The translations under genes and the position numbers were made by a program. From contig CAVOHP010000010.1 in the NCBI GenBank assembly GCA_963695715.1, forward strand, positions 42,749-106,748: a stretch of 64,000 nucleotides of DNA. Reading direction: 5' to 3'. Origin of the DNA: an uncultured Chloroflexia bacterium. Lineage in GTDB: Bacteria > Chloroflexota > Anaerolineae > CG2-30-64-16. Below, piece by piece: positions 1 to 63,110 of this stretch. Below the pieces are notes generated by a model that was not told where the DNA came from, ran no database searches, and was given only the letters and a program-made list of their open reading frames with translations. Every line of letters starts with the position of its first letter. The stretch's first letter is position 1.

Positions 1-41
1 GTTAGCCTGTCCGGACAGCGAAACACCGGAACTCGAAAAGG

Positions 42-551
42 TTGGGAGGCGTCAGGGTGCAGATGATCGAAAGCGGCAAGTTCGGCGATCCCTCCGTGGT
101 CCGCGACTATCGAAGTGAACTGCTGGGCGACGTTTACGTCGAACGCATCATATGGGGTGAATTGCCCGCTCCACGGCGGTCGTCGGGCCATAGCATCGCC
201 GACCGGGGCTTCATCTGGTTTCGCTTCTGGCTCCTCAGCGATGACCAGGTGATCGAACGCTATTACGATGCCGAGGGCCGGCTGATTGTCACGCAGATTG
301 ACGTGTGCGGGCCGCTGTTTTGCAATCAGAATGGCTGTCAGACCGAAGACCTGATCCTGGATATCCGAATTTCGCCGGATGGCGGCGTCACTGTTCACCA
401 TGAGGACGTCTTCGAACGCGCGGTTCTGTCGGGCTCGCTCGAACCCGTGCAGATCGAGCAGCGCGGAAACCCACGTGCGCCGGCTCACGGCGGCCATCTC
501 ACGCGGGCGTTTTCCGCCGCCCCTGGTGCGCAACTGGCAAGTAGACGCTAG
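42..551 (+). CDS. DUF402 (Ntdp/YgaC-like) family protein
   Basis: ORF 169 aa. The C-terminal motif DLILDIRISPDGGVTVHHEDVFERAVLSG..PVQIEQ matches the conserved YIDLDLDL..DEDEF..A core of DUF402. Confidence 0.55.
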   Translation: MGGVRVQMIESGKFGDPSVVRDYRSELLGDVYVERIIWGELPAPRRSSGHSIADRGFIWFRFWLLSDDQVIERYYDAEGRLIVTQIDVCGPLFCNQNGCQTEDLILDIRISPDGGVTVHHEDVFERAVLSGSLEPVQIEQRGNPRAPAHGGHLTRAFSAAPGAQLASRR

Positions 552-559
552 TCGCATCT

Positions 560-1247
560 CCGGCACACTGACCCCTACGCCGACCTGAACTCTCAGGATA
601 CCCGGGCGAGTTGGGCGGAAGAATTCGGCCAACGCCAGCACGGCGGCCGCGCCGAACCCCAGCAGATTGAGCCAGAAACCCCAACCGGGAGCAATCGGGT
701 GATTGTACAGCCCCGCGATGGGCGGCAGCGCCCGCAAGAACCCCCACGCCGGCGCCAGCGCCGCCATGAGACTCAACGCTGCCAGCATGACAAAAACCAG
801 GCGATCGGGGATGCGGCGTATCAGCGGGATGAGCGCAACCGCCAGCAGGCAGGTCGCGATCATAATCACCTGAAGCCTGAATTCCGCTTGCCGCAAGACG
901 GCGGGGCTCCAGGCCGGAGGTAGCATCGCCAGCGCCAGTGGAATCGCGCTCAGCCCCAGGAGCCAGCGCAACCCGCGCGGCAGGGCGTCGCGACTCGCGA
1001 TCAGCGCAGATCCCAGACTGGCCGCCATGAGCGGAAGATAAAACAGTTCGCGCGTCAGGCGGATTTCTCCGCCGGCCACTTGCGGCAGAAATTTCACGTA
1101 TTCGGCCAGATCCAACCCAAGCACGATCAGCCCGGCGGCGCGGTGCGGAACCCAGGGCCCGTAATAGCCGATCAACCCCACCAGCCCCAGGGCAATCAAC
1201 AGCAGCCACTCCAGGCGACGATTGCTGGTGAGTCGAACGCGTCTCAT
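560..1247 (-). CDS. polytopic membrane protein (not in supplied ORF track); start ATG at 1245-1247, 3' end unresolved
   Basis: Manual minus-strand translation in the frame with codon starts divisible by 3: MRRVRLTSNRRLEWLLLIALGLVGLIGYYGPWVPHRAAGLIVLGLDLAEYVKF..IMIATCLLAVALIPLIRR..FVMLAALSLMAALAPAWGF..GWGFWLNLLGFGAAAVLALAEFF. It predicts about 6 hydrophobic helices and has high GC3. This frame has no stop codon down to the window edge, because it runs antisense through the DUF402 gene. That explains its absence from the ORF track. Confidence 0.45.
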
Positions 1248-1251
1248 GGCA

Positions 1252-2377
1252 TCATCCCATCGCCAGCGCGTAGGCTTCGGCCAGCTTTGCGGCTGCCGCG
1301 GCCCAACCGAACGTGGCGGCCTGCGCGCGCCCACGCTCGATGGCCTGCGCACGGCGACCGGAATCGAGCAGACCGGTTTCCATCGCTTGAGACAGCAACG
1401 CCAGATCGTTAGGCGTCACCGTGATCGCCGCATCTCCCACAGTTTCCGGCAGGCTGGACGTATTGCTGCACACGACAGGAATCCCGCACGCCATCGCTTC
1501 GAGTGGGGGCAGCCCAAACCCTTCATAGAGAGACGGGTAGACGAACAGATCGGCCAGACCGTAGAATGCGGGCAAGTCCTCATCGGCGACATATCCCACG
1601 AATTGCACGTCCGAGCCGATGCCCTCCTGCTCGACGCGCGCGTAAATCGGCTCGAACATCCAGCCTTCTTTGCCGGCAATGACGAGGCGGTGAGGCAGAC
1701 CGGTGCGGCGGCGCAAGTCGGCATAAGCGGAGATCAGCGTAGGATAGTTCTTGCGAGGCTCCAGAGTGCCCAGGGAGAGGATGAATTCCGCCGGCAGACC
1801 GTAACGGCTTCGCACCACTTCCAAAGCGTCCGTATCAACGATCGGGGTGAAGCGGTCTTCCACGCCGCCCGGTACGACGCTGATCTTCTCCGTCGCGACA
1901 TGGAGCAGCCCGATCAGGTCATCACGCGTATTCGATGAGTCCGCCAGTACGTGATGCAGCGCGCCCGATAGACTGAGGCACAACACGCTGAAGATAATCG
2001 CGCAGCGTCGGCGGCGCGCATTCCGGCGTTGTGAGAAAGGACAGATCGTGCACCGTCACAAGGCCGCGCGCCCGCGAGAGCGGCGGCAAGGTGAAATCGG
2101 GAGAGTGATAAAGATCGCATGCGCCTGCGAGCCATTCGGCGGGGAGGGGAATCCGCAGCCTTTGCCACAGCCGGGACATGACCGGCTCCGACAGCCGGAT
2201 GTTGCGAACGGCAAAATTGGCCGGCCAGGCAGACGCGTCGAGCGCCGCGCCGTATGAGAGCAACGTATACGCGTGCTCGCGGTCGAGTTCCGCCAGCGCC
2301 GCTACCAGTCCCCTGGTATAGCGCCCGATGCCCGCCGATTGCCGGAGGGCAGGCGTGTAATCAATGGCGACGTGCAC
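1252..2377 (-). pseudogene. GT1/GT4-family glycosyltransferase, split by a frameshift near 1925-1985
   Basis: ORF 1922-2377 is the N-terminal GT-B half (MHVAIDYTPAL..GIGRYTRGL). ORF 1252-1986 is the C-terminal half ([18 protein letters not shown]). The two halves overlap by 65 nt in different frames. Confidence 0.6.
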
Positions 2378-4582: not shown

Positions 4583-4592
4583 CATGGTATAA
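4583..4592 (+). promoter_or_regulatory. extended -10 promoter element (TGGTATAAT) for the dsbA-like gene, followed by an AAGGAG RBS
   Basis: Sequence catgGTATAATcgtg lies about 45 nt upstream of the ATG at 4635. GAAGGAGAA sits 8 nt before the ATG. Confidence 0.35.
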
Positions 4593-4634
4593 TCGTGCAG
4601 TTGCTCAAATCGCTTCTGAAGGAGAAAACGCCGT

Positions 4635-5336
4635 ATGGCAAAGAAGGCTCAACTACCGAAGTCACAGCCCGGCAAGCAGCCTGCCAAACCGACTTCCAAC
4701 AACTCGCGTTGGCTGCTCCTGGCGCTGGTCGGAGCCGTCGGGGTGTTAGTCCTCGGATTGATCCTGTTGCAGGGACGATCCAATCAACCGACCGTCACCG
4801 AAACGGCGCGCGTCGGTGAGGGGACAAGCTGGGGTCCGGCGGATGCGCTGGTCACGATTAACGACTTCTCGGACTTTGGCTGAAGCTACTGCGCACGGTT
4901 CGGTCTGAACCAGGGCAAACAACTCAGGGAAATGTTCGAGGAAACCGGGAAAGTCCGTTTCAACTACAGGCATTTTATCGTCATTGGGCCGGAATCGGCC
5001 GATGCGGCAAACGCCTCAGAATGCGCAGCCGACCAGGGGCGGTTCTGGGATTATCATGATCTGTTGATGCGCCAGTCGGGCACATCCGCCAATGCGTTCA
5101 GCAAAGCGGCGCTGAAGAGCTACGGCCAACAGCTTGGCCTGGAAACAACGCAGTTCAACAGTTGTGTAGATTCCGACCAGCATCTCGAAAAGGTCTATCA
5201 GGACGTGAACGAGGGGAAACAGTTGGGGGTACAATCCACCCCGACCTTCTTCATCAACGATCAGAAGGTCGAAGGCGCGGCGCCTTTTGAGCAGTTCAAG
5301 TCCATCATCGATGGCTACCTTGCCAACACGCAGTGA
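4635..5336 (+). CDS. membrane-anchored DsbA-family thiol:disulfide oxidoreductase with in-frame TGA (candidate Sec) at the first active-site Cys; UxxC motif
   Basis: ORFs 4635-4883 and 4932-5336 share one frame and are separated only by the TGA at 4881-4883. The sequence FSDFG-TGA-SYCARF aligns to the canonical DsbA/BdbD FSDFQCPYCARF CxxC site. There is an N-terminal TM anchor and a cis-Pro motif GVQSTPTFFIND. Confidence 0.6.
4891..4916 (+). promoter_or_regulatory. candidate bacterial SECIS hairpin downstream of the in-frame TGA
   Basis: gcgcacGGTTCggtctGAACCagggc forms a 5-bp stem GGTTC/GAACC with apical loop GGTCT, beginning 13 nt after the TGA. The loop resembles the GGUC-containing apical loop of the E. 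coli fdhF SECIS. A lower stem with bulges is possible. Confidence 0.45.
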
Positions 5337-5353
5337 ACCGATGATAGCATTCG

Positions 5354-5402
5354 CATAACATCAGGGAGCAGGCAACCATCGCCTGCTCCCTCTGATGTTA
5401 TG
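5354..5402. terminator. long imperfect hairpin between the convergent dsbA-like and mtnP genes (bidirectional terminator)
   Basis: cataacatcagggagcaggc..gcctgctccctctgatgttatg forms an approximately 20-bp stem with a 2-nt bulge, located between stop codons at 5336 and 5415. Confidence 0.5.
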
Positions 5403-5414
5403 CGCCGGGTTGCG

Positions 5415-7298: not shown

Positions 7299-7712
7299 GG
7301 TGGAGATGCCGGGAGTCGAACCCGGGTCCGAAACAGACGATCGCACGCATCTACAAGCTTAGTCGCTGATTTGGTTTTCGCCGTCCGGTCCAGCAGCGAC
7401 CACTGTCCACTAGGAAGGCTAGCCGATTGTCTTAGGCCCGTCTATCGGCGTACACGGGCCGCACCCTACGGTATTATGACGACGCTCTCCGTCGCCGCCG
7501 GAACCCGGCGGAGGCGCCGTGGTCACTCTTCAGCGACCAGTTGTTCCCTGCTCCTTCTTACGCGGCCAGCGCGAGCTGGTTGGTGCGAGCGAAGGGGAAG
7601 GTGAACGCTTTGCCTGAGTTGGCAGTTATTGTTTTTGCTCCTGATTTGCGAGGTTGGAGCGCCTCGGCTTGCAACGTACGCCCAATCTGCCCCGTCGAAA
7701 CCATTCATCCCC
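7299..7712 (-). ncRNA. ssrA: tmRNA (transfer-messenger RNA)
   Basis: Reverse complement begins GGGGAUGAAUGGUUUCGACGGGG and ends ..CGGACCCGGGUUCGACUCCCGGCAUCUCCACC (tRNA-Ala-like T-arm and acceptor). An internal ORF ends ..AFTFPFARTNQLALAA-UAA, the classic ALAA degradation tag. Confidence 0.85.
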
Positions 7713-7810: not shown

Positions 7811-8293
7811 TCAGTAATCCTCCTGCCAACCGCCCTTGGTCACGCGCTGCATCTCGCGGTCGGCGTCACGCTCGGCGACGGCATCCTTCTTGTCATAGAG
7901 TCGCTTGCCGCGCACCAGGGCGACCTCCACCTTGGCCCGCCCACCGCTCAGATACATGCTCAGCGGCACGATGGTCCAGCCGCGTTCCGAGACTTTGCTT
8001 TGCAGCTTGCGGATTTCCACGCTGTGCAAGAGCAGTCGTCGCTCACGCCGCGGCTCATGGTTCTCGCGGTTGCCGAAGTCATATGGCGAGATGTGCACGT
8101 TCATCAGCCATGCCGATCCGTTGCGAATCTGCACGTAGCCGTCGCGCAGGTTCACCCACGAGGCGCGCACCGACTTGATCTCCGTCCCCGTCAAGGCGAT
8201 GCCCGCCTCATAGGTATCCTCGATGAAGTACTCATGCAACGCCTTCCGGTTCGTCGCCACCGGCCTCACGCCGCCTTCGCCTCGCTTCGCCAC
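7811..8293 (-). CDS. smpB: SsrA-binding protein
   Basis: 160 aa with ..ALHEYFIEDTYEAGIALTGTEIKS..HISPY.. Sits immediately upstream of ssrA. Confidence 0.85.
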   Translation of the reverse strand: MAKRGEGGVRPVATNRKALHEYFIEDTYEAGIALTGTEIKSVRASWVNLRDGYVQIRNGSAWLMNVHISPYDFGNRENHEPRRERRLLLHSVEIRKLQSKVSERGWTIVPLSMYLSGGRAKVEVALVRGKRLYDKKDAVAERDADREMQRVTKGGWQEDY

Positions 8294-9675: not shown

Positions 9676-10969
9676 TTACCTCTCCCCGCGCAACCAGGCC
9701 TCCGCCCTCGCCAATTGCGGATCACGACCGGCATCCCGGTCTTCTGCGCTCACCGATACAGGGACGTCCGGCTCGAGCCCTGCGCCGTCAATCTGCGCGC
9801 GGTTCGGAGTGAGCCAGCGCGCGACCGTCACGTGCAGGGATGAGCCATCCGATAGTTCATGGACTTCCTGCACCGAGCCTTTGCCAAAAGACTTCTCGCC
9901 GATCAACGTGGCGCGGTCGTTATCCCGCAGGGCGCCGGCGACGATCTCAGAAGCGCTTGCCGTGCCGCCGTCGGTCAACACCACGATTTCCCAATCATAC
10001 GCCGGGCTAGTAACCGGCTTAACGGCATAATAACGCTCCTGGCCGTTGCGCTTCATCTCGCGCAGCACATCGCCATCCCGCATCAACAGGCTGGAGACAT
10101 CAACGGCCGACTGGAGCAACCCACCGCCATTGCCGCGGAGATCGAACACCAGCTTTTTGACGCCGGCGTCGTTCAATTCGTCCAGCGCGCTCGCGCAGTT
10201 CCTCGGCGGTGCGCTCGCTGAACAGGTTCAGACGCGCATATCCGATGTGCGCCTGTTCATCCAGCACCCGCCATTCGACGGTCGGCGTTTCGATCCGCTC
10301 ACGCACGACGTCAATTTTGAGCGGCTCGGCCACACCTTCACGCCGCAGCGTCAGGGTCACGGGGTCGCCCACCTCGCCGCGCACCAGCGCCACGACCTCT
10401 TCAACGGTCATTTGCGCCGTGATGGGCGTCTCGTCTGCCGCAAGGAGGATATCGCCATCCTGAACGCCCGCCTTCGCCGCCGGGCGATCTCGCATCACAG
10501 TGACCTGCATATCGCCGGCCTCGTTGCGACCCAGATATGCCCCGATGCCGCCGAAATGGCCGCGCAACTCATCGCGCTCCATCTCGCGTGACACGGGTTC
10601 AACGTAAACCGTGAAACGGTCATTGTAAGCCGAAACCAGACCCCGAATCGCCGAACGTTCCTGGGCTTCTGCATTCGGGATCTCGCCCATGAAGCGCTCG
10701 TCCAGGATCGCCTGCACTTCGGGTAAGATGTGGAATCCCGCGCCGGAAGCTTCGGCCGGCGAGCCGCGGCGCCCGCCCAGCAAGTAGCCGCTCAGAAAAA
10801 CCGCGCCCAAAATCACGACGGCCACGAGGCCGGCACTCAGTCTACGCACTCTCTTGATTCCTTCAACGTGACATAATGTGCATCGCGACTCCCTGATCTG
10901 CCGGGGGAGCGTTAGGCGGCGCATAGTAGCATGGCCCCGCCTCACATACACACGTGTGGATTGTACCAC
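9676..10969 (-). pseudogene. second S41 C-terminal processing peptidase, frameshifted near 10150-10175
   Basis: ORF 10100-10969 has the TM anchor, PDZ region and ..HIGYARLNLFSERTAEEL. ORF 9676-10176 has ..VFDLRGNGGGLL..DGGTASASEIVAGALRD. Removing one base from gagcgcgctggacgaattg restores the reading ..EELREALDELNDAGVKK.. Confidence 0.6.
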
Positions 10970-11302: not shown

Positions 11303-12632
<1,330 letters not shown>

Positions 12633-12658
12633 AGCGATAGTTGACCTCCCTCGGTCGT

Positions 12659-13823
12659 TCAGAACCTCAGGGCGCGTAAGCGCCGGACGGCTTCGACGAC
12701 GCGTTCCGTCGTCTGCCCCACCGACACCCGGAGATAGCCCTCGCCGCCCGGCCCGAAGGTCGTCCCCGGCGCCAGGCTCACGCCGGTTTCCAGGAGGACC
12801 TTCTCCGCGCATTGCGCCGAGGTATACCCCGCCGGCACGCGCGGCCACAGATAAAGGCTGGCGCGGGGTTTATGGCAGCGTACGCCCCAATCATTCGTGA
12901 ACAGCATCGTAAAACAGATCCCGCGGTATTCGTATTCTGCGTTCCGCGCCGTCCATCCACGCCGCATCTTCGGTCAATGCCGCAATCGCCGCATCTTGCA
13001 CAGCGAGGAACATGCCGCTGTCTATATTGGTCTTGATCTGCGCCGAGCGCGCCGACCGCCCGCTTGTTACCAACGGCCATCCCCACGCGCCAGCCCGCCA
13101 TGTTGTGCGACTTGGAAAGCGAGTTGAATTCGACGGCGACATCCTTCGCGCCCGGCACAGCCAGCAGGCTGGGCGCAACGTAGCCGTCATAGCAGACGTC
13201 GGCATAGGGCACATCATGGCACAGCAGGATATCGTGGCGCCGGCAGAAATCCACCGCCGCTTCGAAGAAGCTCATGGGCGCAATACTGCCGGTCGGGTTA
13301 TTCGGATAGTTCAGCCACATAATCCGGGCCGTGTCGGCGATCTCCGCCGGAATTGCGGCCAGGTCGGGCAGGTAATCGTTCTCCTCCCGCAGCGGCATAT
13401 AGTACACATCGGCCCCGGCCAGGGCCGCCCCCATGCGATAGGTCGGATATCCGGGGTCGGGGACCAGCGCCAGGTCGCCCGGATCCAGCCAGGCCAACGA
13501 CATATTGGCGATCCCCTCTTTCGACCCGATGAGGGGCAGGATCTCATCGGCCATGCTCACGTCCACCCCGAATCGTCTCCGGTAATAGTCCGCCATGGCC
13601 TGCCGCAGCGCCGGCAACCCCATGAACCCCGGATAACCATGTTGCCCGGATTGCGCGCCGAGGTCGCCAGCGTCTCGATCACCAGCGGCGTCGGCGGCCC
13701 GTCCGGGCTGCCGATATCGAGCCGGATGATGTCCAGGCCTTGCGCCTGCAAGGTCTGAAGCTTGGCGTCCAGCGACGCGAACGCATATACGGGCAGTGAA
13801 TCCAGCCTCCGCGATGGTCTCAT
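12659..13823 (-). pseudogene. class I/II aminotransferase (LL-DAP/Asp aminotransferase-like), three frameshifts
   Basis: Four ORF pieces in different frames join into one protein: ..LPVYAFASLDAKL..NPGN / MGLPALRQAMADYY..SLSKSHNMAGWRVGMAVGN / ..KTNIDSGMFLAVQDAAIAAL..YDAVHE / ..ASLYLWPRVPAGYTS..YLRVSVGQ. Confidence 0.6.
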
Positions 13824-19389: not shown

Positions 19390-20405
19390 TCAAGTGATAT
19401 TGTCGTTTGGCAACGCCGCGCCGGCCGTCAGGAGCGCGATATCATCTTCGGACGCAGGTCCTGCGGGGTATGATTGCATCCCAAAACGAGTCAGGATCAC
19501 CGCGCCGAGACCCAGGGCTGCGATCAAGAGGCCGATCAGGCCGCCGAAGCAGAGCGGCAGACGGGAGAGAAACGTGATGAGGAAGACGCCCACGGCGGCC
19601 TCGAGAAATGAAGCCACATCCCGCATCTTGAACACATGCAGCAGAGATTGTCCGACCCGAGCCCGACGGCGATCCAACCGACTACGATCGCGATGAGCGC
19701 CGCGAGCCAGACGAACAACCCGAGGCAACAACAGATCAGGAGGAAGAGGCCCGCAAACCCGGCAACCGCCAACGCAAACAGACCGACGATGAAGCTCATC
19801 AAGGATTCAGTTGCGACCGTGTTGGCTACCCGCCCCACGTTCCGCGGCGCAATCAACACCGCGAGCACGGCCAGAATCGCCATTAAGAGCGACCACCCCA
19901 GCGCCTGAATCGGCCACAGGATGAGCGACCAGACGTGTGACAGCATCGGGGGACCCGGTTCAGCCGGGGTCGGCGGCGCAATCGGAGGAATGAGACGATC
20001 CGGGACCGGGAACGATTCTGTGTCGAAAAGATCTCCGCCAACCGTCGCGCCCGGCGCGCGGCTGACCGAACTGCCGATGCCGGCCACGCTGCCCCGAACC
20101 ACCGCACCCTCATCCAATGTGACACTGCCGCCAAACACAACAACGTCGCCGGTTACTGTGCCGCTCACGCTCAAATCGCCGCCCAGTACGGCGACATCGC
20201 CATTTACGACACTTTCCGCTTCGAGTTCCGCATCACCGCCGACAACCGCCAGGTTGCCGTTGATCCGGTCTCCCGCAGTCAACACGAAGTTTTCGCCAAT
20301 GACGAGCTTATCCCCATCCGGGCTTTGCGCGAAGACAACCGGAACCGCCCCCAGCAGCAGAACCGCGCACACCAGCACTGCGATCGATACACGCCGATGA
20401 ATCAT
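19390..20405 (-). pseudogene. secreted beta-helix (bactofilin/DUF4097-like polymer-forming repeat) protein with C-terminal TM region; frameshift near 19640-19730
   Basis: Start MIHRRVSIAVLVCAVLLLGAVPVVFA (signal peptide) at 20403-20405, directly after the anti-sigma stop. Repeats GDVAVLGGDLSVSGTVTGDVVVFGGSVTL. The C-terminal TM part continues in ORF 19390-19731 in another frame. Confidence 0.5.
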
Positions 20406-21031
20406 GGGTATGCACTCATCTTTCCGAACGAAGGCTTCCGGCTGTCGCCGCGACTCGAGCGCGCCGTCACCCGGCGCGCCGACCTCGCCTGTGATCGTCC
20501 CACCAAACAGAGCCACGCCACAAGCAAACCACCCGCCAGCGTCAGATAGACGCCGGCGCTCAATGCCACGCCCTGCCAATCCGCGCTGCGCGCCACGGTC
20601 GCCAACCCGCGTAGCGTCCACACAATCCCGGCGGACAATCGCAACATACCAGAGAGAAGCGCTTCGACGATCATAGACTGGCGCGACCAGCCGAGATACA
20701 GGCCGGCCGTTGACAGCATCAACGCGCAGAGCAACAGCCCTACCCCTGTCAACGCGATCGCGACCCATCGAATCCTTTGCCGGCGCGCATCAACCATCTC
20801 AAGGCGCGCCGCCAATCCGGCCAACAGGTCGGGCGAAGGCGCGACGCTCGGAGCTTTCGCAAACAACCGGTCAGCCGCCTTCCAGTCTTCCCAGGTCGTC
20901 GCGCAGGCCGGGCACATCGCCAGGTGCGCCTGCAACCTGGCCTCTTCGGCTGAACTGGCTTCCCCATCCAGCGCCAATGACATCAACAACGTCATATCTT
21001 CGTGCATGTTATCCGGCTCCCAGAACTTCAA
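20402..21031 (-). CDS. anti-sigma factor (zinc-finger HLAMCPAC, single TM)
   Basis: 209 aa. An N-terminal zf-HC2-like motif (H..C..C) and central TM helices. Overlaps the 3' end of the ECF sigma gene. Confidence 0.6.
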   Translation of the reverse strand: MKFWEPDNMHEDMTLLMSLALDGEASSAEEARLQAHLAMCPACATTWEDWKAADRLFAKAPSVAPSPDLLAGLAARLEMVDARRQRIRWVAIALTGVGLLLCALMLSTAGLYLGWSRQSMIVEALLSGMLRLSAGIVWTLRGLATVARSADWQGVALSAGVYLTLAGGLLVAWLCLVGRSQARSARRVTARSSRGDSRKPSFGKMSAYP

Positions 21032-28223: not shown

Positions 28224-29515
28224 TTACACCGCGCCGGAAACCAGGCGCCGGCCACGGCTATGCGCCTCCGCCATGATCGTCTCCTCATCGAGTGTGAGCA
28301 GACGCCGGTCTCGCATCAGCCACTTCCCGGCGACCATCAGGTCGCTCACGTCGCGGCTTTGCGCCGTATAGAGCATGGTCTCCAACAACTCGGTTCCGCC
28401 GCTCAGCCGGGCGGTGTCCCGGTTGATCATCAGCAGATCGGCGGCGAAACCCGGCGCAAGCACCCCACTCTGCCCGAAGCCAAGCGCCGCTGCGGCCACA
28501 TGCGTCGCCATTTGCAGGCTGAACTGATCCACGGCGGCATCACGAACGTCTCTCGCCTGGAACAAGGCTGCCAGGCGCGCCTCATGCAGCATATCGAACC
28601 GGCCGCTCACCGTCGGGCGTTCCGACCCCAGGGCGACCGTGACGCCATCGCTGCGTCAGCGCGGCGACCGGCGTCGCGCCCAATCCGCTCCGGGCCTGAT
28701 ACGTCGGGCATTGCACGCAGACAACGCCCTTCGAAGCCAGGATCTCATGATCGGTTCCCGTCACGTGACTCGCATGAGCTGCAAGCACCGGCACATCCAG
28801 GACGCCGTTCCGATTGAGCATCTCCACAATCGTCATGTCATATCGCGCGAGCGCCTGATCCGCCTCGCGTTGCGTCGCCGCCAGGTGCAGATGGATGCTC
28901 GAACCCAGGCGCGCGGCCACCGCCGCCGTACGCGCCAGGAACACGGGTGAGCATTCGATCGGTGAATGCGGCCCTAATGCGGTGTGCACTCGCCCATCGC
29001 CTGCCCCCTGCCATTCTTCCACAAAGCGCGAGATGCCGGTCAAATCACGACCGAATTCGGTTTCGCGCCCGAAGGTACACCACGACAGATTGGCCCGCAG
29101 ACCGCTCTGTACCACGACCTCGGCCACCCGATCCATGAAGAAATACTGATCCGCAAAGCCGGCCACGCCATTGCGAATCATCTCACACGCAGCCAGTGCG
29201 GCGCCCCAGTAGACATCTTCGCCGGTCAAACCCGAGCCGAGCAGAAATGCCGGGTCTTCCAGCCAGCGAGTCCAGGCCGCCGCCGGGGGCCCATCCTCGA
29301 AACAATGCCATCGGGCTGTGCGTATGCGCGTTGAAAAGGCCCGGCATCACGATATGCCCGCGCGCATCCACCGTCTCATCGGCGATGAAGCCCGCCGGGG
29401 CCGCGCCCACAGCCGTGATGGCGCCGTCGGTGATCGCGATGTCCGCGTCGAACAGCAGCCGGCCATCGGCGTCGAGCGTCAGGATATCGCCATGTTGGAT
29501 GAGGATCTTGCTCAT
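28224..29515 (-). pseudogene. amidohydrolase (MtaD/SAH-MTA deaminase-like), two frameshifts
   Basis: ORF 29183-29515 has the N-terminal ..MPGLFNAHTHSPM motif. ORF 28582-29229 has the middle section. ORF 28224-28610 has the C-terminus (..GFAADLLMI.. metal-binding Asp region). The three are in different frames. Confidence 0.6.
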
Positions 29516-32484: not shown

Positions 32485-34521
32485 TGCACATCGCACTTGG
32501 AATTGACACCGGCGGAACGTACACGGATGCGGTCCTTGTAAATCACGACAACGGCGCCGTGCTGGCCGGCGCGAAAGCGCTGACGACCCGGCACAACCTC
32601 ACCGAGGGCATTGCGGCCGCGCTGACCGCCCTGTTTCAGACACCGGCAGCCGGCGCGATCAACCCGCAGGATATCGGCCTGGCGTCTATCTCGACCACGC
32701 TGGCGACCAACGCCCTGGCCGAGGGGCATTCCGGCGCCGTGACGCTGTTTCTGATCGGGTATGACACCGGGCTGATGAAGCAATATGGCTTCGCCGGCCA
32801 ACTCTCCACCGATGACGTGGTCTACGTTCAGGGCGGCCACAACGATCGCGGCGAGGAGATGGCGCCGCTCGACCTGGAGCACGTCGCCCGCGAAGTCGAG
32901 AAACGCGTGGGCAAGACGGAAGCCTACGCCGTCTCCGGTTATTTCAGCGTTCGCAACCCGACCCACGAGCTACAAGTGCGCGATCTGATCGCCCAACACA
33001 CGGACTACCCGGTGAGCTGTGGGCATCAACTGAGCAGCCGTCTCAACGCCGTGCGAAGGGCCACGACAAGCGCCCTGAACGCGCACTTGATCCTGCCGCT
33101 GGACGACCTGATTCGCTCTGTGCGACGCACGCTGCTTGAACGTGGCATCACCGCGCCGCTGATGGTCGTCAAGGGCGATGGATCGTTGATCCGCGCCGAC
33201 GTCGCCCTCGAACGCCCCATCGAAACCATCCTCTCCGGCCCGGCGGCCAGCGTCGTTGGCGCATGGCACCTGGCCGGGCGGCGCAACGTGTGGGTCGTGG
33301 ATGTCGGCGGCACCACCACCGATATCGCCGCCCTCTCCGACGGCGCGCCTCGCCTGAGCCGCGAGGGCGCGCAGGTCGCGGGTTGGCGCACCATGGTCGA
33401 GGCCATTGACGTGCATACCAGCGGGCTCGGCGGCGACAGCTACGTGCGCATTGACAGCGAAGGCGCGCTGCTCATCGGCCCCCGGCGCGTCATCCCCATC
33501 TCGCTGCTCGCAAGCCAGTTTCCCGAGGTCAAGCGGGAGTTGGCGCTGCAACAGGCGATGCCGGGCCGAAAGCACCTGCCGGATGCAGCGCAGTTTCTGA
33601 CGAAGTCTCGCAACCCCGGATACGCGTTATCGGCTGAAGAAAATGAATTCCTGGCGACGCTCCAGGAAGGGCCACAGTCGCTGCTCAATCTCGCCCGGTT
33701 GGCGCGCACGCGCGGCTTCCATCGCCGCGGCCTCGAACAGATCGAACAACGCGGTCTGGCCCGTCGGTCGGCCTTCACGCCAACGGACGCCCTGCACGTG
33801 ATGGGGCTGTTCCAGCGTTGGGATTCCGAAGCGGCGCAACTGGCAGCCGAATTGCTCGCCCGCCGGCAGGGCATCACCGTCTCCGAGTTATGCGAACGCG
33901 TCGTTGCAGGGATGTCGGCCCGCGTGGCGACCGAACTCGTCTCGAAAGTCATCGAGGATTCCGGCGGGGCCGCGAGCGTGGGATCGCGAACCGACGGCGG
34001 CGGCCTTCATGCATTGCGCGCTCAACGGCGATGGCGACGACTCGGGCGAGCTGGAATGCCGGCTCACGCTGCGCCGCCCCGTGGTTGCCATCGGCGCGCC
34101 GGTCGCCGCCTACCTGCCCACAGTCGCCGCAAAGCTCAATACCGAGCTGGTGATCCCCGAATGGTCTGAGGTTGCCAACGCCGTCGGCGCCGTAGCCGGC
34201 AGCGTCACCCAGCGCGCTCGCGTCTCCATCGCGCCGATTGACCAGGGTGAGCGCTATCGCGCCTACCTCCCCGACGGCTTCCACGACTTCGAGCGCCTGG
34301 AGGACGCCGTCTCATTCGCCCGCGCGATGGTGCTGCCTGAGATCGAAAAGCAGGTGCGCATCGGCGGAGCCGAACAGGTCGAGTCGGACATGGTTCGTCG
34401 CGACGAATACGCGCCCGTGTCAGACGATCCTGCCGACCGACTCTATTTGGGCACTGAGTTGGAGTTTAGAGCCGGCGGGCGTCCCTCATTTGCACGCGAG
34501 TCGTCGCCGGTTCGCGAATGA
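32485..34521 (+). pseudogene. hydantoinase/oxoprolinase (HyuA-like) family protein, frameshift near 33905-34000
   Basis: TTG start, then LHIALGIDTGGTYTDAVLV (Hydant_A_N). Central VVDVGGTTTDIAAL. The C-terminal about 170 aa continue in ORF 33904-34521 in another frame. Confidence 0.55.
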
Positions 34522-35282
34522 GCGAGCCGCAGGTGAACCCGGACTTTCTCACCGGCGAACCGGATCCACAGGCGCCCGTCCTCGTTGTGGTCGTCAACAA
34601 CCCGGACGATCTGGCGCGCTTGCGCAGCGCCGGCTGGTATCGCATCCCGCAGGCGCGCGCGCCGCAGCGCACCGCCTCCGAATATCTCGCGTTCTACCAG
34701 ACCGCCGCATTCCCGCCCGACGAACGCTGGCAGATTCGCTGGTGCGCCCCGGTGCGCGGCTATTACCTGGTCAGCCGCAGAGAATTGATCCCCGAGGAGC
34801 CGCATCACCCGCGCGCCGAAGACCTGTATTACAAAGTGACGCTTGGGCCGCTGGTCGCGTTGCCGCGCCCCATTCCCAGCCGGCGGTTGCGCCGGATCAC
34901 CTTCATCCCCACCACAGTGGGGCGATTATCCGCCGCGCACGAGATCAACGATCTGTGGATTCGCGCCGGCGCCCACGAGCGGCTGTGGAATGCCCTGCAA
35001 CAGGCCGCCTGGAAGCCGAATCACGACCTACCAATCGCCGATGACGATGAAGAGCATCGCATTGACTTCGCGTTGCCCTGCCGTGACGGCAAAGTCGCCG
35101 TGATCATCGAAGACGCGCGGGAGACCGCCCGGCTCAACGAAGCCGGCGACCAGGTCATGACCTATCGGCTTGCCGCGCAGGGCTGGAGGACGCTGCGATT
35201 ATCAACCGCCGATATCAATCAGGATGCAACGGCCTGGGCGATCGCGCCTGGCCGAAATCTGCGCAGAACTGGGTGGACTCAC
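34518..35282 (+). CDS. hypothetical protein with C-terminal DUF559/Vsr-like endonuclease-fold motif; no stop codon before patB
   Basis: ATGA overlap with the upstream gene. The C-terminal region ..HRIDFALPCRDGKVAVIIEDARE..YRLAAQGWRTLRLSTADIN resembles DUF559. This frame reads directly into MTQTDYDF of patB without a stop. Confidence 0.4.
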
Positions 35283-36459
35283 ATGACACAGACCGATTAC
35301 GATTTCGATGCCATCATAGATCGCCGCAACACAGGCTCCGAGAAGTGGGACCGCTACGGACCCGACGTGCTGCCCTTCTGGGTCGCCGACATGGATTTTC
35401 GCTCCCCGCCGCCGGTGATCGAAGCCCTGCATCGCCGGGTAGACCAGGGCGTATTCGGCTACTCGTCCGGCGCGCCCGGCCTGAGAGAAGTCCTGGCCGA
35501 GCGCATGGGTCGGCTCTACGACTGGATCGTGGAGCCGGACGCCATCGTCCCGCTGCCGGGCGTCGTGCCGGGCGTCAGCCTCGCGTGTCTTGCGCTCACC
35601 CGCCCCGGCGAGACGGCCATCGCCATGCCGCCGGTCTATCCACCCATCCTGCGCGCGCCCGCGCTGACCGGCCTCATGCGCCTGGATGTCCCCCTGCTAT
35701 GCCGGGGACGACCTGCATTACGAGATGGATCTCGACGCCTTCGAAGCCGCGCTGACGCCGCAGTCGAAGCTCCTGATCCTTTGCAACCCGCATAACCCGG
35801 TGGGACGCGTCTTCACGCGCACCGAGTTACAAAGTTTGGCGGATATCTGTCTGCGGCGCGGCGTGGACATCTGCTCGGATGAGATTCATTGCGACTTGCT
35901 CTTCGCCGGTTACGAGCATACGCCCATCGCCGCCCTCGCGCCGGAGATCGAGGCGCGCACGATCACCCTCATGGCGCCCAGCAAGACCTTCAATATCCCC
36001 GGTCTGAAGTACTCCTTTGCCGTGATCCCGAATGCCGCCGTGCGCGACCGCTTCAATGCAGCACGCGCCCACCTCGTCTCCGAGCCGAATCTGCTGGGAA
36101 CGGCCGCCGCCCTGGCCGCATACGAGGCCGGCGGCGACTGGCTGGCGGCGTGCCTGACTTACCTGGAGGCCAATCGCGATTTCCTGGTGAACTTCATTCG
36201 CAGCCACATGCCGGGTATTGAGGTCGCCGCGCCCGAAGGAACCTATCTGGCATGGCTCGATTGCCGCAAGCTCGACCTGCCCTGCGGGCCGTATCCGTTC
36301 TTTCTGCAAGAGGCGCGCGTTGCGTTAGGCGATGGGGATCACTTCGGGCTGGGCGGCGAGGGGTTCGTCAGGCTCAACTTCGGCTGCCCGCGCGCCATGC
36401 TCACCGAGGGTTTGGAGCGCATGGCCGCCGCGCTGGCCGCGAGCACTGCGACCGCATAA
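35283..36459 (+). pseudogene. patB: MalY/PatB-type cystathionine beta-lyase (PLP C-S lyase), frameshift near 35690-35795
   Basis: N-terminal part MTQTDYDFDAIIDRRNTGSEKWD.. is in the 34518 frame. The remainder ..LLILCNPHNPVGRVF..SKTFNIPGLKYSF.. is in ORF 35686-36459. Confidence 0.6.
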
Positions 36460-36500: not shown

Positions 36501-36576
36501 TGGTATCCCAGAGAGGACTTGAACCTCTGGCCTCTTCCTCCGCAGGGAAGCGCTCTATCCACTGAGCTACTGGGAC
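36501..36576 (-). tRNA. tRNA-Arg (anticodon GCG as read; the isoacceptor call needs a covariance search)
   Basis: Reverse complement GUCCCAGUAGCUCAGUGGAUAGAGCGCUUCCCUGCGGAGGAAGAGGCCAGAGGUUCAAGUCCUCUCUGGGAUACCA folds as a cloverleaf with anticodon loop CU-GCG-GA. Confidence 0.7.
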
Positions 36577-36604
36577 CTATTCGCCCTGTCCTGAAGACAG
36601 AGTC

Positions 36605-38241
<1,637 letters not shown>

Positions 38242-42195: not shown

Positions 42196-42264
42196 TTTCC
42201 ATACTTGTAGTCTAGCCCCTTGTGGGCGCAGGCGACGGGGCGTATTATTAATGCACGCTGAGGG

Positions 42265-43985
<1,721 letters not shown>

Positions 43986-43989
<4 letters not shown>

Positions 43990-45787
43990 TCCAACCCATA
44001 GACACCACCGAATCGGCTGCCGCATCCGGGCGCCGGTCACAGGCCAACACGACCCGGGCGGCCGTTACGGATCGCCGATTCGTCTTGTTCTGGCTGGCCG
44101 CGCTGGCCTTCTACGCGGCGACCCTGCTGTCGTTCTGGGCCGCATATGACCGGAGCGCGGCATTCGGTAGGCTTGCCGGCCTGACGGCGGGCCTCGTTGC
44201 GGTCGGGGTGATCGCCTTCCTCGCCCGGCGCAGTCGCTACGCCCTGATTGCATGGGGCGGCATGGCCTGTCTTGCGCTTGCCGCGCTGATCGGCGGCTAT
44301 TTTCTGCTGACCTACGATTGGCAGGCCGCCGGCGCCGGCAAGGTCGCTATCATCTATCGGCTGGGCCTCTGGCTTCAAGCGGGTCGGCCCTCGATACCGT
44401 TGCCGTTCACCGAGGACATCAACGGCAATGTCGCCGGCGGCGCGATGATCCTGCTCCTCCCGCTGGGCCTGGGCGGCGCAGGCTGGCTGATCCGCAACTG
44501 TCCGTGGCCGCGGGCGATCAAAGCCGTGGTCGGCGTCATTGTCGCCATCGTCGCCCTGTTCGTGCTCGCCGCCGTCATGCTGACCCTCTCCCGCGGGAGT
44601 TGGCTCGCCGTTGCCGCGGCCACGGCGGCCGCGATCTATATGGCATGGCGAGGACGTCTGAAGGAGGATCACCTCTGGCTCGACGTGATCGCTTTCGGCG
44701 CCTTCACGGCTGCCCTCATCGGGATTTTCGCGGTCGCCGTGCGCTGGCCCGGTTCGAGCGCCGGGGTCGGCGGGCTCGAGGCGTTACTCGGCGCAGCGAC
44801 CGGCGTCGGCGGCTCCGGGGCCAGCAGAGTATCGCTATGGCGAGATATGCTGCCCCTCGTCGCAGACTATCCCCTGACGGGCGGCGGTCTGGGCAGCACG
44901 ATGATGGTCTTTTCGAGCTACGTGCTGATGCTGCACGTGGGTTTCATCGGCCACGCGCACAATCTGTTTCTGCAGATCGCCGTCGAACAGGGCCTGCCGG
45001 CCATGGCGGCCTTCGGGGTGATGACCGGAACCGCGGCATGGGGCGTCCTACGCAGCGCCGGCAGACCGGGTCGGCGGCAACGGTTCCCTGCGCCGGCGGC
45101 CATGGCGGCCATCGTCGCCATGCTCATCCACGGGATGGTGGATGCCGGACCGTGGACCAGCAAACTTGCGCCGGTAGTCTTTCTGCCGCTCGGCTTCGCC
45201 ATTGCAACGTGGGCGGCCCGATGCCGGAAAGTGTACGCTTACCGCGGAACTCCGCGCGCATGGCATGGGCTGCCGGCGCGCTGGCGCTGGCGACGGCGTT
45301 CATCATCGCCCTGCTGCCGGCCACCCGATCGGTGGTCCAATCCAACCTGGGGGCGGTAGCGCAGACCAAAGCCGAGCTCGGCGTCTATACCTGGCCGGAG
45401 TGGCCGATTCAGGATGCCTTACGACGGTCGAAACAGATTGATCTGACGCCCGCCATCCGTCATTATGAAGCCGCGCTGAAGTTGAACCCGGCCAACGCCG
45501 CAGCAAACCGCCGGCTGGGTCAGATCGAGTTATCTCTGGGAGGATACGACGCGGCCACCGCGCACATCCAGGCCGCCTTCGACGCGGCGCCCGGTCGGCG
45601 CCCGGAACGCCAGCTTCTCGGTGAGATCCGCGCGATCAACGGTTCGCCCGAAGACGCGGCGGCGTTGTGGCGCACGATATCTTTGACCCGGCAGCAATTG
45701 GACGTTCGGCATTGGTGGTACAATGAGATCGGTGAACCGGAAAAAGCCGCGCTCATCGCCGAGGGTGCAAGGCTGGCGGGCCGGTAA
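43986..45787 (+). pseudogene. O-antigen ligase/Wzy_C family membrane protein fused to a C-terminal TPR-like domain; frameshift near 45200-45360
   Basis: TTG start overlapping the rSAM stop. About 10 TM helices with ..LSRGSWLAVAAA.. and ..GHAHNLFLQIAVEQG.. The C-terminal soluble part (..AIRHYEAALKLNPANAAANRRLGQIELSLGGYDAATAHIQAA..) is in ORF 44252-45787. Confidence 0.5.
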
Positions 45788-48352: not shown

Positions 48353-48361
48353 AAAACAGAC

Positions 48362-49255
48362 ATGCCCACTTCGCAAGATATGACGTCGCCTTCGGTGGGC
48401 AGCCCGCTGACCGATATCGGGCCGTTGCAGACAACGCTCATCAAGCCGGACAGCGGCCTGGTTCTGCCCGATCTGCGCGCGGTATGGGAGTATCGGGAGC
48501 TGTTGCTCTTCCTCGTTTGGCGCGATGTCAAAGTGCGCTACAAGCAGACCGCGCTCGGCGTGGGTTGGATTCTGCTCCAACCGCTCCTCAGCGTGGTCGT
48601 CTTCACCGTGATTTTCGGCATGTTGCTGAATGTGCCTTCCGGCGACGTGCCCTATGCGGTCTTCGCGCTGGCCGGTCTGTTGCCCTGGCAATACTTCTCG
48701 AGTTCGTTGAGCCGCGTCGGCACGGGTCTCGTCAACAGCTCACAATTGATCACCAAGGTCTACTTCCCGCGGCTGATCATTCCGGCTTCCGGGGTGCTCT
48801 CCACACTGGTGGATTTCGCGATCGGCTTCATCGTCCTGCTGGCGTTGCTCCTGTTCTACCGCATTCCGCTCACGCCGCGCATCGTCATGATCGGGCCTTT
48901 CTTGCTTCTCGCCATTGTCACGGCGCTGGCGTTTGGTCTTTGGCTCGCCGCCCTCAACGTGCGTTATCGCGATATCAACTATCTGATCCCGTTTCTGCTC
49001 CAGCTCTGGATGTATGTCACGCCCGTGATCTACGGGGCCGCCTTGATTCCCGAGCAGTACCGGTTTTTGCTGGCTCTCAACCCCATGACGGCGGTCGTGG
49101 AAGGCTTCCGCTGGTCTATCATCGGTACGCCCGGCTCCGCAGCGATCTCTTCCATACCGTTGTTCGCCGTCTCGATCTCGATCACACTGGTGACGCTCGT
49201 GACCGGCCTGATCTACTTCCGTAACACCGAGCGCACTTTCTCGGATATCATCTGA
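48362..49255 (+). CDS. wzm: ABC-2 type polysaccharide export permease
   Basis: 297 aa with 6 TM helices. LLFLVWRDVKVRYKQTALGVGW is the Wzm/TagG signature. Confidence 0.75.
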   Translation: MPTSQDMTSPSVGSPLTDIGPLQTTLIKPDSGLVLPDLRAVWEYRELLLFLVWRDVKVRYKQTALGVGWILLQPLLSVVVFTVIFGMLLNVPSGDVPYAVFALAGLLPWQYFSSSLSRVGTGLVNSSQLITKVYFPRLIIPASGVLSTLVDFAIGFIVLLALLLFYRIPLTPRIVMIGPFLLLAIVTALAFGLWLAALNVRYRDINYLIPFLLQLWMYVTPVIYGAALIPEQYRFLLALNPMTAVVEGFRWSIIGTPGSAAISSIPLFAVSISITLVTLVTGLIYFRNTERTFSDII

Positions 49256-49260
49256 TCGTC

Positions 49261-50427
<1,167 letters not shown>

Positions 50428-61690: not shown

Positions 61691-61730
61691 TTCCAGGCGC
61701 GCATAAAGACATCACGAAACGCGGGGCCAT

Positions 61731-63110
61731 ATGACTTCACTCTTGCGCCGCCTGAACTTACCGCTCATTATCCTGCTCGCGATCTTGCTGCGGCTGGGGA
61801 TCGGGCTCTACCTCGGCGATACAGTTCCCGACAACACCGATGAAACGTCTTACTCTGCCCTGGGGGCGCGGCTGGCAACGGGGCACGGCTACTCCTTCGA
61901 TCGCGGTTGGTATCCGTTCACGTCACCCGATACGCCCACGGCCCACTGGTCGTTTCTGTACTCTGCGTTTGTGGCGGCCGTCTACAGCGTCACCGGCCCC
62001 CACCCGCTCGCCGCGCGCCTCGTCGGCGCCGTCCTCGGCGGCATCCTTCTCCCGTTGACCATGGTTTTCTTCGCCCGGCGTCTCTACCGCGAAGGTCCCA
62101 CCAATCCCACGTCAGATTCACAGCCGCTCGCGCCTCAAGCCCTGTCGGCTGCGCATATCTTGCCGTTGCTTTCGACCTTGCTCGCGGCGATCTATCTCTT
62201 TTTCGCGATTTTCGCCGCCAGCCTGATGACCGAAACATTCTACATTACGGCGCTGCTATGGTCGCTCGAACGCGGTCTGGCCCTTCAGCAAACGCTCCGC
62301 TCGACCGATGCGCCCCGCCGTCAGGTCTGGTTGATCGGGCTGGGCCTGGGGATCGCGTTGGGAATCGCCACGTTGCTCCGTCAATCCATCTTACCCTGGG
62401 CGCCGATCATGGGCCTATGGTTGCTCTGGCGCGGCTGGCGTCACCAAAGACTCGGCGCGGCCTTTCAAGCGATGACGGTCGCGGCCATCGTCGTCATTGC
62501 GTGTATTCTTCCGTTCACGCTGCGCAATTACCGCGTGTATCACGAATTTCTTCTGCTGAACTCGAACGCCGGCTATGCGATGTACTCCGCGCAGCATCCG
62601 ATGCACGGCGCGAGTTTCAGAGAATACGACGCCGCGCCCATGCCTGAGGGTCTGGGCCAGCTCAACGAGGCGCAGCTCGACAAAATACTCATGGCGCGCG
62701 GGATCGGGTTCATCCTCGAAGACCCAGGGCGCTATGCCCTGTTGTCGCTCAGCCGCGTCCGCGACTATTTCGCCTTCTGGCCGACGCCCAACACGCCGCT
62801 CGTCAGCAACCTGGGTCGGGTCTTCTCCATTGCCCTCTTCCTGCCCTTCATGCTCTACGGCATCTGGCTTGCGGCGCGCAACCCGTCCCGTTCGCCGGCG
62901 CACGCATTATTGCATCGCGAAGATGTCGCGTTCCTGCTGCTCTTCATGGCCTTCTACAGCCTGCTGCACATCCTGACCTGGGCCATGGCGCGCTACCGGT
63001 TGCCTGTAGACGCCGTCGCGTTGCCGTTTGCGGCCCTCGCCTTGCTCGATCTCGCGGCAAGGCTGAAACTCGTCACGCTCGCCCCATCGCCTGGCGCCGG
63101 CGCAGCCTGA
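61731..63110 (+). CDS. GT39/GT83-like (PMT/ArnT family) membrane glycosyltransferase
   Basis: 459 aa. N-terminus ..DETSYSALGARLATGHGYSF.. then about 11 TM helices. Confidence 0.65.
   Translation: MTSLLRRLNLPLIILLAILLRLGIGLYLGDTVPDNTDETSYSALGARLATGHGYSFDRGWYPFTSPDTPTAHWSFLYSAFVAAVYSVTGPHPLAARLVGAVLGGILLPLTMVFFARRLYREGPTNPTSDSQPLAPQALSAAHILPLLSTLLAAIYLFFAIFAASLMTETFYITALLWSLERGLALQQTLRSTDAPRRQVWLIGLGLGIALGIATLLRQSILPWAPIMGLWLLWRGWRHQRLGAAFQAMTVAAIVVIACILPFTLRNYRVYHEFLLLNSNAGYAMYSAQHPMHGASFREYDAAPMPEGLGQLNEAQLDKILMARGIGFILEDPGRYALLSLSRVRDYFAFWPTPNTPLVSNLGRVFSIALFLPFMLYGIWLAARNPSRSPAHALLHREDVAFLLLFMAFYSLLHILTWAMARYRLPVDAVALPFAALALLDLAARLKLVTLAPSPGAGAA

Follow-up and report, generated by a model that had tools for sequence, protein, structure and literature searches.

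A predicted selenocysteine-containing, signal-anchored DsbA/BdbD-like oxidoreductase with an in-frame TGA and a SECIS-like hairpin in Anaerolineae

Two families of bacterial selenoproteins carrying a UxxC motif, in which selenocysteine (Sec, U) is the first residue, were defined in 2005-2006 and termed 'DsbA-like' (COG2761/PF01323) and 'DsbG-like' (COG1651). DsbA-like selenoproteins were first seen in the Sargasso Sea metagenome, and a later survey found them in 41 organisms. A review from 2026 lists both families, the latter with the NCBIfam model NF041057 (PMC13188914); this model, the 'Rcas_1661 family thioredoxin-like (seleno)lipoprotein', represents the DsbG-like UxxC family of Zhang and Gladyshev (PMC13188914; PMC1088965; PMC1794560). 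Here we describe a related gene at positions 4635-5336 (plus strand) of a 64-kb stretch of contig CAVOHP010000010.1, which belongs to an uncultured bacterium of the Anaerolineae (Chloroflexota) and is referred to below as the window. Comparative sequence analysis makes it highly probable that the in-frame UGA at codon 83 of this single DsbA/BdbD-type gene is decoded by insertion of Sec, dependent on SelB and on a selenocysteine insertion sequence (SECIS).

The gene is a single frame of 233 codons whose sole internal stop is the TGA at 4881-4883, located between the peptides INDFSDFG and SYCARFGLNQ, and whose real terminator is the TGA at 5334-5336. A mechanical list of open reading frames (ORFs) reports it in two pieces, 4635-4883 (82 aa) and 4932-5336 (134 aa). 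An earlier sequence-only reading of the window had recognized that these two ORFs lie in the same frame, split by a single TGA, and had joined them into a complete DsbA/BdbD-like protein with a transmembrane anchor, a TPTFFIND cis-Pro motif and the TGA at the place of the first Cys of the CxxC motif; all of this was borne out by our analysis. For profile and structure comparisons Cys was set at the TGA position (residue 83). The joined protein matched Pfam PF13462 (Thioredoxin_4) over residues 63-226 with an E-value of 2.4e-31 and 109.6 bits (cut-off 23.2), and PF01323 (DSBA) with an E-value of 7e-13 and 49.2 bits (cut-off 25.6), and both alignments form one stretch running across the TGA. Solved chains likewise align in one stretch, over residues 65-229 (DsbA 4pwp, E-value 2.4e-16; BdbD 3eu3, E-value 1e-14), which suggests a thioredoxin fold with a helical insertion. 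In an alignment of 64 full-length homologs the residues C83 (the TGA column), C86, C130, C177, T202 and P203 are invariant, and the UxxC/CxxC redox motif U83-x-x-C86 thus falls in invariant columns. The pair Cys130 (5022-5024) and Cys177 (5163-5165) probably forms a structural disulfide. In proteins with the thioredoxin fold the cis-Pro loop is turned towards the active site, and Thr202-Pro203 (5238-5243, motif TPTFFIN) would adopt the cis conformation as in other members of the fold. At the N-terminus, residues 27-45 (4713-4769) constitute a hydrophobic core, with a Kyte-Doolittle 19-residue maximum of 3.05 mean hydropathy, and are preceded by residues 1-25 with six Lys or Arg and no Asp or Glu. 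A lipobox is not found in the protein, and there is no Cys ahead of residue 83. According to the positive-inside rule, the N-terminal helix is predicted to be an N-in/C-out signal anchor, so that the redox domain would lie outside the membrane.

Among the NCBIfam models, NF041057 gave the best match (E-value 2e-41); its score of 142.2 bits does not reach the 190-bit equivalog cut-off, and the match covers model positions 72-245 of 247, leaving the N-terminal 71 positions unmatched. A Cys-containing homolog (P0001) scored 124.5 bits against the same model. The window protein and NF041057 have in common the UxxC/CxxC redox motif and the whole thioredoxin domain, and NF041057 comprises Sec as well as Cys members. 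In contrast to this lipoprotein family, however, the window protein has a predicted signal-anchor helix and lacks a lipobox, and is thus not a lipoprotein. Because of the low score, the partial coverage of the model and the signal anchor in place of a lipobox, we have filed it as a relative rather than as a member of NF041057, namely as part of a signal-anchored Anaerolineae sister group with one clade containing Sec. The Rcas_ prefix of the name-giving locus tag we take to stand for Roseiflexus castenholzii, a Chloroflexi species. This organism is listed without Sec machinery (PMC5029168), and Rcas_1661 is therefore presumably a Cys form.

With the DsbA-like selenoproteins the window protein shares a thioredoxin-fold DsbA-type domain, a predicted Sec as first residue of UxxC, a PF01323 score above the cut-off, and a SECIS-type hairpin that follows the UGA directly and carries a G in its small apical loop. 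It differs from them in scoring 110 bits with PF13462 versus 49 bits with PF01323; since PF13462 outscores PF01323, and with the COG class judged from these Pfam scores, the protein appears to resemble the BdbD/COG1651 type more than the FrnE/COG2761 type. Among the solved Cys oxidoreductases (DsbA 4pwp/4pwo, BdbD 3eu3, MdbA 6bo0), the active-site helix, the helical insertion and the cis-Pro loop align within residues 65-229, but all of these proteins are CxxC enzymes, none is a selenoprotein, and the identity is low (E-values of 1e-14 to 1e-16). The solved DsbA, BdbD and MdbA proteins are exported or membrane-tethered.

A protein search recovered approximately 110 CxxC homologs of full length, whose identity does not exceed 60%, and in addition six short homologs of 134-143 aa which are 68-96% identical and cover the C-terminal 58% only. 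From the DNA of the short homologs, one match in a genome collection and two matches of a metagenome pattern scan, we obtained eight further contigs from independent assemblies (L016 from ENA; L001, from the Anaerolineae metagenome-assembled genome (MAG) JBBQRS01 at NCBI; L017, L020, L021, L023 and L024 from JGI; L022 from Logan; two more, L018 and L019, are repeats of L017), and all eight show TGA at the identical codon at 67-96% identity. Domain identity among the TGA forms is as low as 67%. In a neighbour-joining tree the TGA forms constitute a single clade versus 102 Cys forms, and TGA is present in nine out of nine clade members. The true terminators vary: the window and L016 end in TGA, L022 in TAG, and L001, L017, L020 and L021 in TAA. 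The internal stop, by contrast, is TGA in every case. The ratio of nonsynonymous to synonymous divergence (dN/dS) is 0.08-0.29 over the 24 codons ahead of the TGA and 0.07-0.25 over 76-135 compared codons past the hairpin described below, at a synonymous divergence (dS) that ranges from 0.8 to more than 2 and so up to saturation. The low dN/dS on each side of the TGA indicates that both halves of the gene are translated and under purifying selection.

Downstream of the TGA lies a hairpin resembling a bacterial SECIS (bSECIS) element at 4890-4917 (plus strand). In the RNAalifold consensus of the Sec forms its lower stem UGC/GCA pairs 4890-4892 with 4915-4917, the 5' arm being the TGC codon of Cys86; a single pair, C4894:G4913, follows, and the upper stem GGUUC/GAACC pairs 4897-4901 with 4907-4911, closing a 5-nt apical loop GGUCU at 4902-4906. 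The segment GGTTC-GGTCT-GAACC had been pointed out in the sequence-only reading as a SECIS-like hairpin with a GGUC-like loop 13 nt past the TGA, and it is found there, at 4897-4911. Published criteria for bSECIS elements comprise a loop of 3-9 nt, an upper stem of 4-16 bp, a spacing of 16-37 nt between UGA and loop and a minimum free energy (MFE) of -7.5 kcal/mol or lower, and call for a G within the two opening positions of the loop, in most cases arranged as N1-G-(G/U)-N-N2 with N1 and N2 paired (PMC13188914). The window hairpin agrees with these values by its 5-nt loop, 5-bp upper stem and 18-nt spacing, by N1:N2 being G.U (A-U in L020), and by an MFE of approximately -10.5 kcal/mol, with values of -10.5 to -13.1 kcal/mol across the Sec forms other than L020. 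It thus shares with known SelB-dependent Sec insertion the position of the hairpin within the coding sequence 3' of the UGA, the GG or GU opening a small loop, and the spacing; in comparison with the bSECIS model, a consensus built from many selenoprotein genes, it is short, with a 5-bp upper stem and a four-pair interrupted lower stem, and binding of SelB is suggested by analogy. Further support for a SECIS-like role, as initially proposed, comes from suppressed synonymous variation over the hairpin: pairwise synonymous differences amount to 10% in codons +3 to +11 versus 42-46% across the remaining gene, and among 194 windows of 9 codons, seven of the eight with the lowest scores overlap the TGA and the hairpin. 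The strong evidence for the hairpin is this conservation beyond chance and not its stability.

Indeed, thermodynamic stability was dropped as evidence, because shuffled sequences reach a comparable stability (z = +0.57; 139 of 200 shuffles fold as well) and because the Cys form L002 also folds locally to approximately -11 kcal/mol, but in another shape. The lack of exceptional stability is one of several observations that speak against Sec insertion. The structure in L020, with -6.4 to -7.4 kcal/mol, just misses the energy criterion. Formal covariation is weak, as 54 of 500 shuffles equal the observed score; 98.8% of the alignment cells pair, with one compensatory change from C:G to U:A, three one-sided changes that preserve pairing, and one break. 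The element is not covered by any Rfam family, and a permissive scan of 4800-5000 yielded only chance matches to snoRNAs and lncRNAs (E-value > 1). No SelA, SelB-wing or AIRS (SelD) domain was detected by Pfam in the 64-kb window, where all plausible ORFs and also six-frame segments of unannotated, initially match-free regions were scanned. Likewise, tRNA-Sec was found neither in the window nor in ten related loci, and a scan of the window at the Rfam gathering thresholds returned a tmRNA and three tRNAs only. At the level of the class there is a precedent in Anaerolinea thermophila UNI-1, for which SelD, SelA, SelB and four selenoproteins are listed (PMC5029168 Tables S1/S2). Elsewhere in the literature three selenoproteins in three families are given for the phylum Chloroflexi, and Sec-containing formate dehydrogenases have been reported in single cells of subphylum I.

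Cys-containing relatives provide a control for these observations. We examined four of them (L002, L025, L026 and L027), and each has TGT or TGC at the codon for which Sec is predicted in the TGA clade, a Sec/Cys pairing that answers the question raised by the initial reading about the codon used in Cys orthologs. The Sec-type structure has an energy of +0.5 to +11.1 kcal/mol in the four Cys forms versus -6.4 to -11.7 kcal/mol in the nine Sec forms; none of the four is able to adopt the hairpin of the Sec forms, and in this comparison a bSECIS-fitting hairpin occurs in TGA forms only. L025 and L026 are positional orthologs with both flanks in common, including genes for PNP, IMPase, SmpB and an S41 peptidase, and L002 is a positional ortholog sharing the upstream GT4, GtrA and Wzy_C genes, while the contig of L027 is too short to judge synteny. 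The peptide FGLNQGK is unchanged in L025 and L026 but is written with other synonymous codons (GGC/GGG, CTC, AAT, GGA). As the same peptide is encoded there without the hairpin, the constraint seen in the TGA forms acts on the RNA and not on the protein. The nearest Cys forms already retain 5-7 of the 10 hairpin pairs. It is conceivable, and we propose it tentatively, that the Sec clade arose by a separate and fairly recent switch from Cys to Sec at this syntenic Anaerolineae locus, with the SECIS emerging largely through synonymous tuning of an already existing segment coding for FGLNQGK. If this were true, living Cys and Sec orthologs would capture the birth of a SECIS element within the coding sequence of an exported, membrane-tethered selenoprotein oxidase. 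With regard to gene order, the DsbA-like gene always adjoins a Wzy_C/GtrA/GT4 trio, in Sec and Cys forms alike; this trio is additional to the polysaccharide locus described below. Wzy_C and GtrA are fused in the Cys forms L025 (2784-4787) and L026 (2807-4798), giving proteins of 663-667 residues, and are two separate genes in the genomes with the Sec form (window, L001, L016, L017 and L022).

An in-frame TGA could also arise by nonsense mutation or by erroneous base calling, and the product would then be truncated and non-functional. The assembly indeed contains damaged genes (a seryl-tRNA synthetase with two frameshifts, and an amidohydrolase, an HflX, an S41 peptidase and a radical-SAM/Wzy gene, each split), but this damage is of the indel type, whereas the frame of the DsbA-like gene is intact; an indel-type error had already been considered unlikely in the sequence-only reading. 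Moreover, the TGA recurs in eight other contigs from independent assemblies. Strong purifying selection past the TGA despite saturated synonymous sites, and an internal codon that stays TGA while the true stops drift, effectively refute a pseudogene or error, the probability of which we consider negligible. It is also very improbable that the locus represents a split gene with two products, a membrane peptide of 82 residues and, from an internal start, a thioredoxin fragment comprising the C-terminal 134 residues. Public gene callers do report exactly these two ORFs, and there is an ATG at 4932 in the window, but this ATG is replaced by a Glu codon in L017, L020, L021, L022 and L024, and no Shine-Dalgarno-like conservation was noted ahead of it. 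Moreover, the 16 codons from the TGA to the ATG are conserved as protein, including the essential Cys86, and the C-terminal fragment would be missing its first strand as well as the entire active site, whereas the Pfam and structure matches span residues ~63-229. A global reassignment of TGA was tried as an explanation and ruled out, because most genes in the window end in TGA. Taken together, the evidence on TGA conservation and selection, drawn from sequence comparisons, rules out that the gene is decayed, wrongly sequenced or split in two, or that the code is reassigned. All predictions of the selenoprotein reading that were examined at the sequence level were borne out.

These arguments leave aside the case that the UGA is recoded, but not as Sec, either by near-cognate read-through stimulated by the hairpin, or by insertion of Cys through an opal-suppressing tRNA(UCA) together with a SelB-like factor. 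The failure of the window scans to detect Sec machinery would be compatible with this, as would the unusual Sec-like tRNA architecture described for Chloroflexi, where an 8/4-type tRNA-Sec is reported (PMC5389517). On the other hand, the hairpin matches the bSECIS consensus of the SelB type, down to the loop Gs and the spacing, and the codon corresponds to a redox-active Cys, a position at which known families regularly show Sec/Cys pairs. In addition, TGA serves as an ordinary terminator in the window, no suppressor tRNA is present there, and Trp or Arg at residue 83 would inactivate the enzyme. We therefore regard recoding to another amino acid as unlikely, and Sec insertion, highly probable as stated above, as the explanation for this gene.

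For Sec insertion we infer the following course, in which decoding through SelB, the incorporation of selenium, the topology and the role in redox chemistry are all deduced from the comparisons above. The gene would be transcribed from its own extended -10 promoter, and the ribosome would reach UGA83, with the hairpin beginning 6 nt downstream. The GGUCU loop, 18 nt past the UGA, might then recruit SelB-GTP-Sec-tRNA(Sec), so that Sec would be inserted in place of termination and translation would run on to the stop at 5334-5336. The mature protein would be held outside the membrane by its N-terminal helix, where a selenenylsulfide U83-C86 could be exchanged with substrate thiols, Sec acting as the nucleophilic first residue of UxxC.

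The signals upstream of the gene are consistent with expression of the complete frame. An extended -10-like box, TGGTATAAT (TGnTATAAT), can be read directly at 4585-4593 (plus strand), and TG-n-TATAAT, TATACT or TATGCT is kept in seven out of seven aligned orthologs amid otherwise divergent upstream sequence, which suggests a promoter. A scan for -35/-10 consensus sequences yielded neither a full sigma-70 site nor a -35 element fitting TGGTATAAT. A Shine-Dalgarno sequence, AGGAG, is located at 4620-4624 (plus strand), 10 nt ahead of the ATG, and AGGAGA is invariant in the seven orthologs. The gene's own extended -10 box and Shine-Dalgarno sequence, both noticed in the initial reading, are thus present and conserved, and because of their conserved upstream location initiation is placed ahead of the first ORF. 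Downstream, between the convergent DsbA-like and PNP_UDP_1 genes, there is a 22-bp hairpin at 5352-5404, a near-perfect inverted repeat without a U-tract and without strand assignment. Its MFE is -42.3 kcal/mol (z = -6.17), and none of 200 shuffles was equally stable. This terminator-like palindrome was not picked up by a consensus terminator scan; it could end transcription in both directions or be bound by a protein.

In the remainder of the window, many housekeeping genes are broken by frameshifts at 36661-38241 (minus strand), 28224-29229 (minus), 11306-12869 (minus), 9679-10969 (minus), 43155-45356 (plus) and 1252-1986 (minus). The seryl-tRNA synthetase leaves its frame for approximately 150 codons and then returns; the amidohydrolase, HflX, the second S41 peptidase and the radical-SAM/Wzy gene are each split into overlapping ORFs; and the GT4 gene encodes 244 aa in the window versus 374 aa in the orthologs. 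This damage looks like long-read-type indel error of the assembly and not like biology, and gene calls in the window therefore need care. Two further in-frame TGA codons were considered and rejected as Sec candidates: for the one at 37432-37434, in the seryl-tRNA synthetase, the middle part of the translation runs out of frame, so that two frameshifts are present in the gene, and the same-frame TGA junction at 43252-43254 is a frameshift artefact beside the radical-SAM fragment.

A tRNA cluster at 36501-36809 (minus strand), directly 3' of the seryl-tRNA synthetase gene, comprises tRNA-Arg(GCG), tRNA-Ser(GCU), which is unusually long with 97 nt, and tRNA-Ser(UGA); neither tRNA-Ser is a tRNA-Sec, because there is no UCA anticodon. 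The tmRNA gene (7299-7712, minus strand, 414 nt), with the tag ANSGKAFTFPFARTNQLALAA, adjoins smpB (7811-8293, minus strand), and the same arrangement with a near-identical tag is also found in L001 and L016. A large locus for cell-envelope polysaccharide extends over ~38400-63100. It contains genes for a GlcNAc 2-epimerase, a hexapeptide acyltransferase, several GT2 and GT4 glycosyltransferases, three Wzy_C (O-antigen ligase-like) proteins, a sulfotransferase, epimerases and dehydratases, and RmlC/RmlD, as well as a Wzm/Wzt-type ABC-2 exporter (48353-50424). Five coding-like long ORFs, at 19539-20789 (minus), 34470-35792 (plus), 42262-43251 (plus), 61707-63107 (plus) and 6-1415 (minus), showed no Pfam match even at an E-value of 0.01.

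In summary, the gene is a well-supported addition to a kind of selenoprotein that bacteria were known to possess, and existing knowledge of how Sec is decoded is unchanged by it. A direct consequence is the correction of a recurrent annotation error: in the ENA, JGI, NCBI MAG and Logan gene calls the locus appears as an orphan ORF of 82-85 residues followed by a truncated "DsbA/protein-disulfide isomerase" of 134-143 residues, a split which NF041057 would not rescue because the score stays under its cut-off. The selenoproteome of the Chloroflexota would gain a signal-anchored, presumably extracytoplasmic UxxC oxidoreductase. Furthermore, matched orthologs with Sec and with Cys that share their genomic context, and in which the SECIS and the Cys state differ mostly by synonymous changes, may aid studies of SECIS evolution as well as the design of Sec-insertion cassettes.

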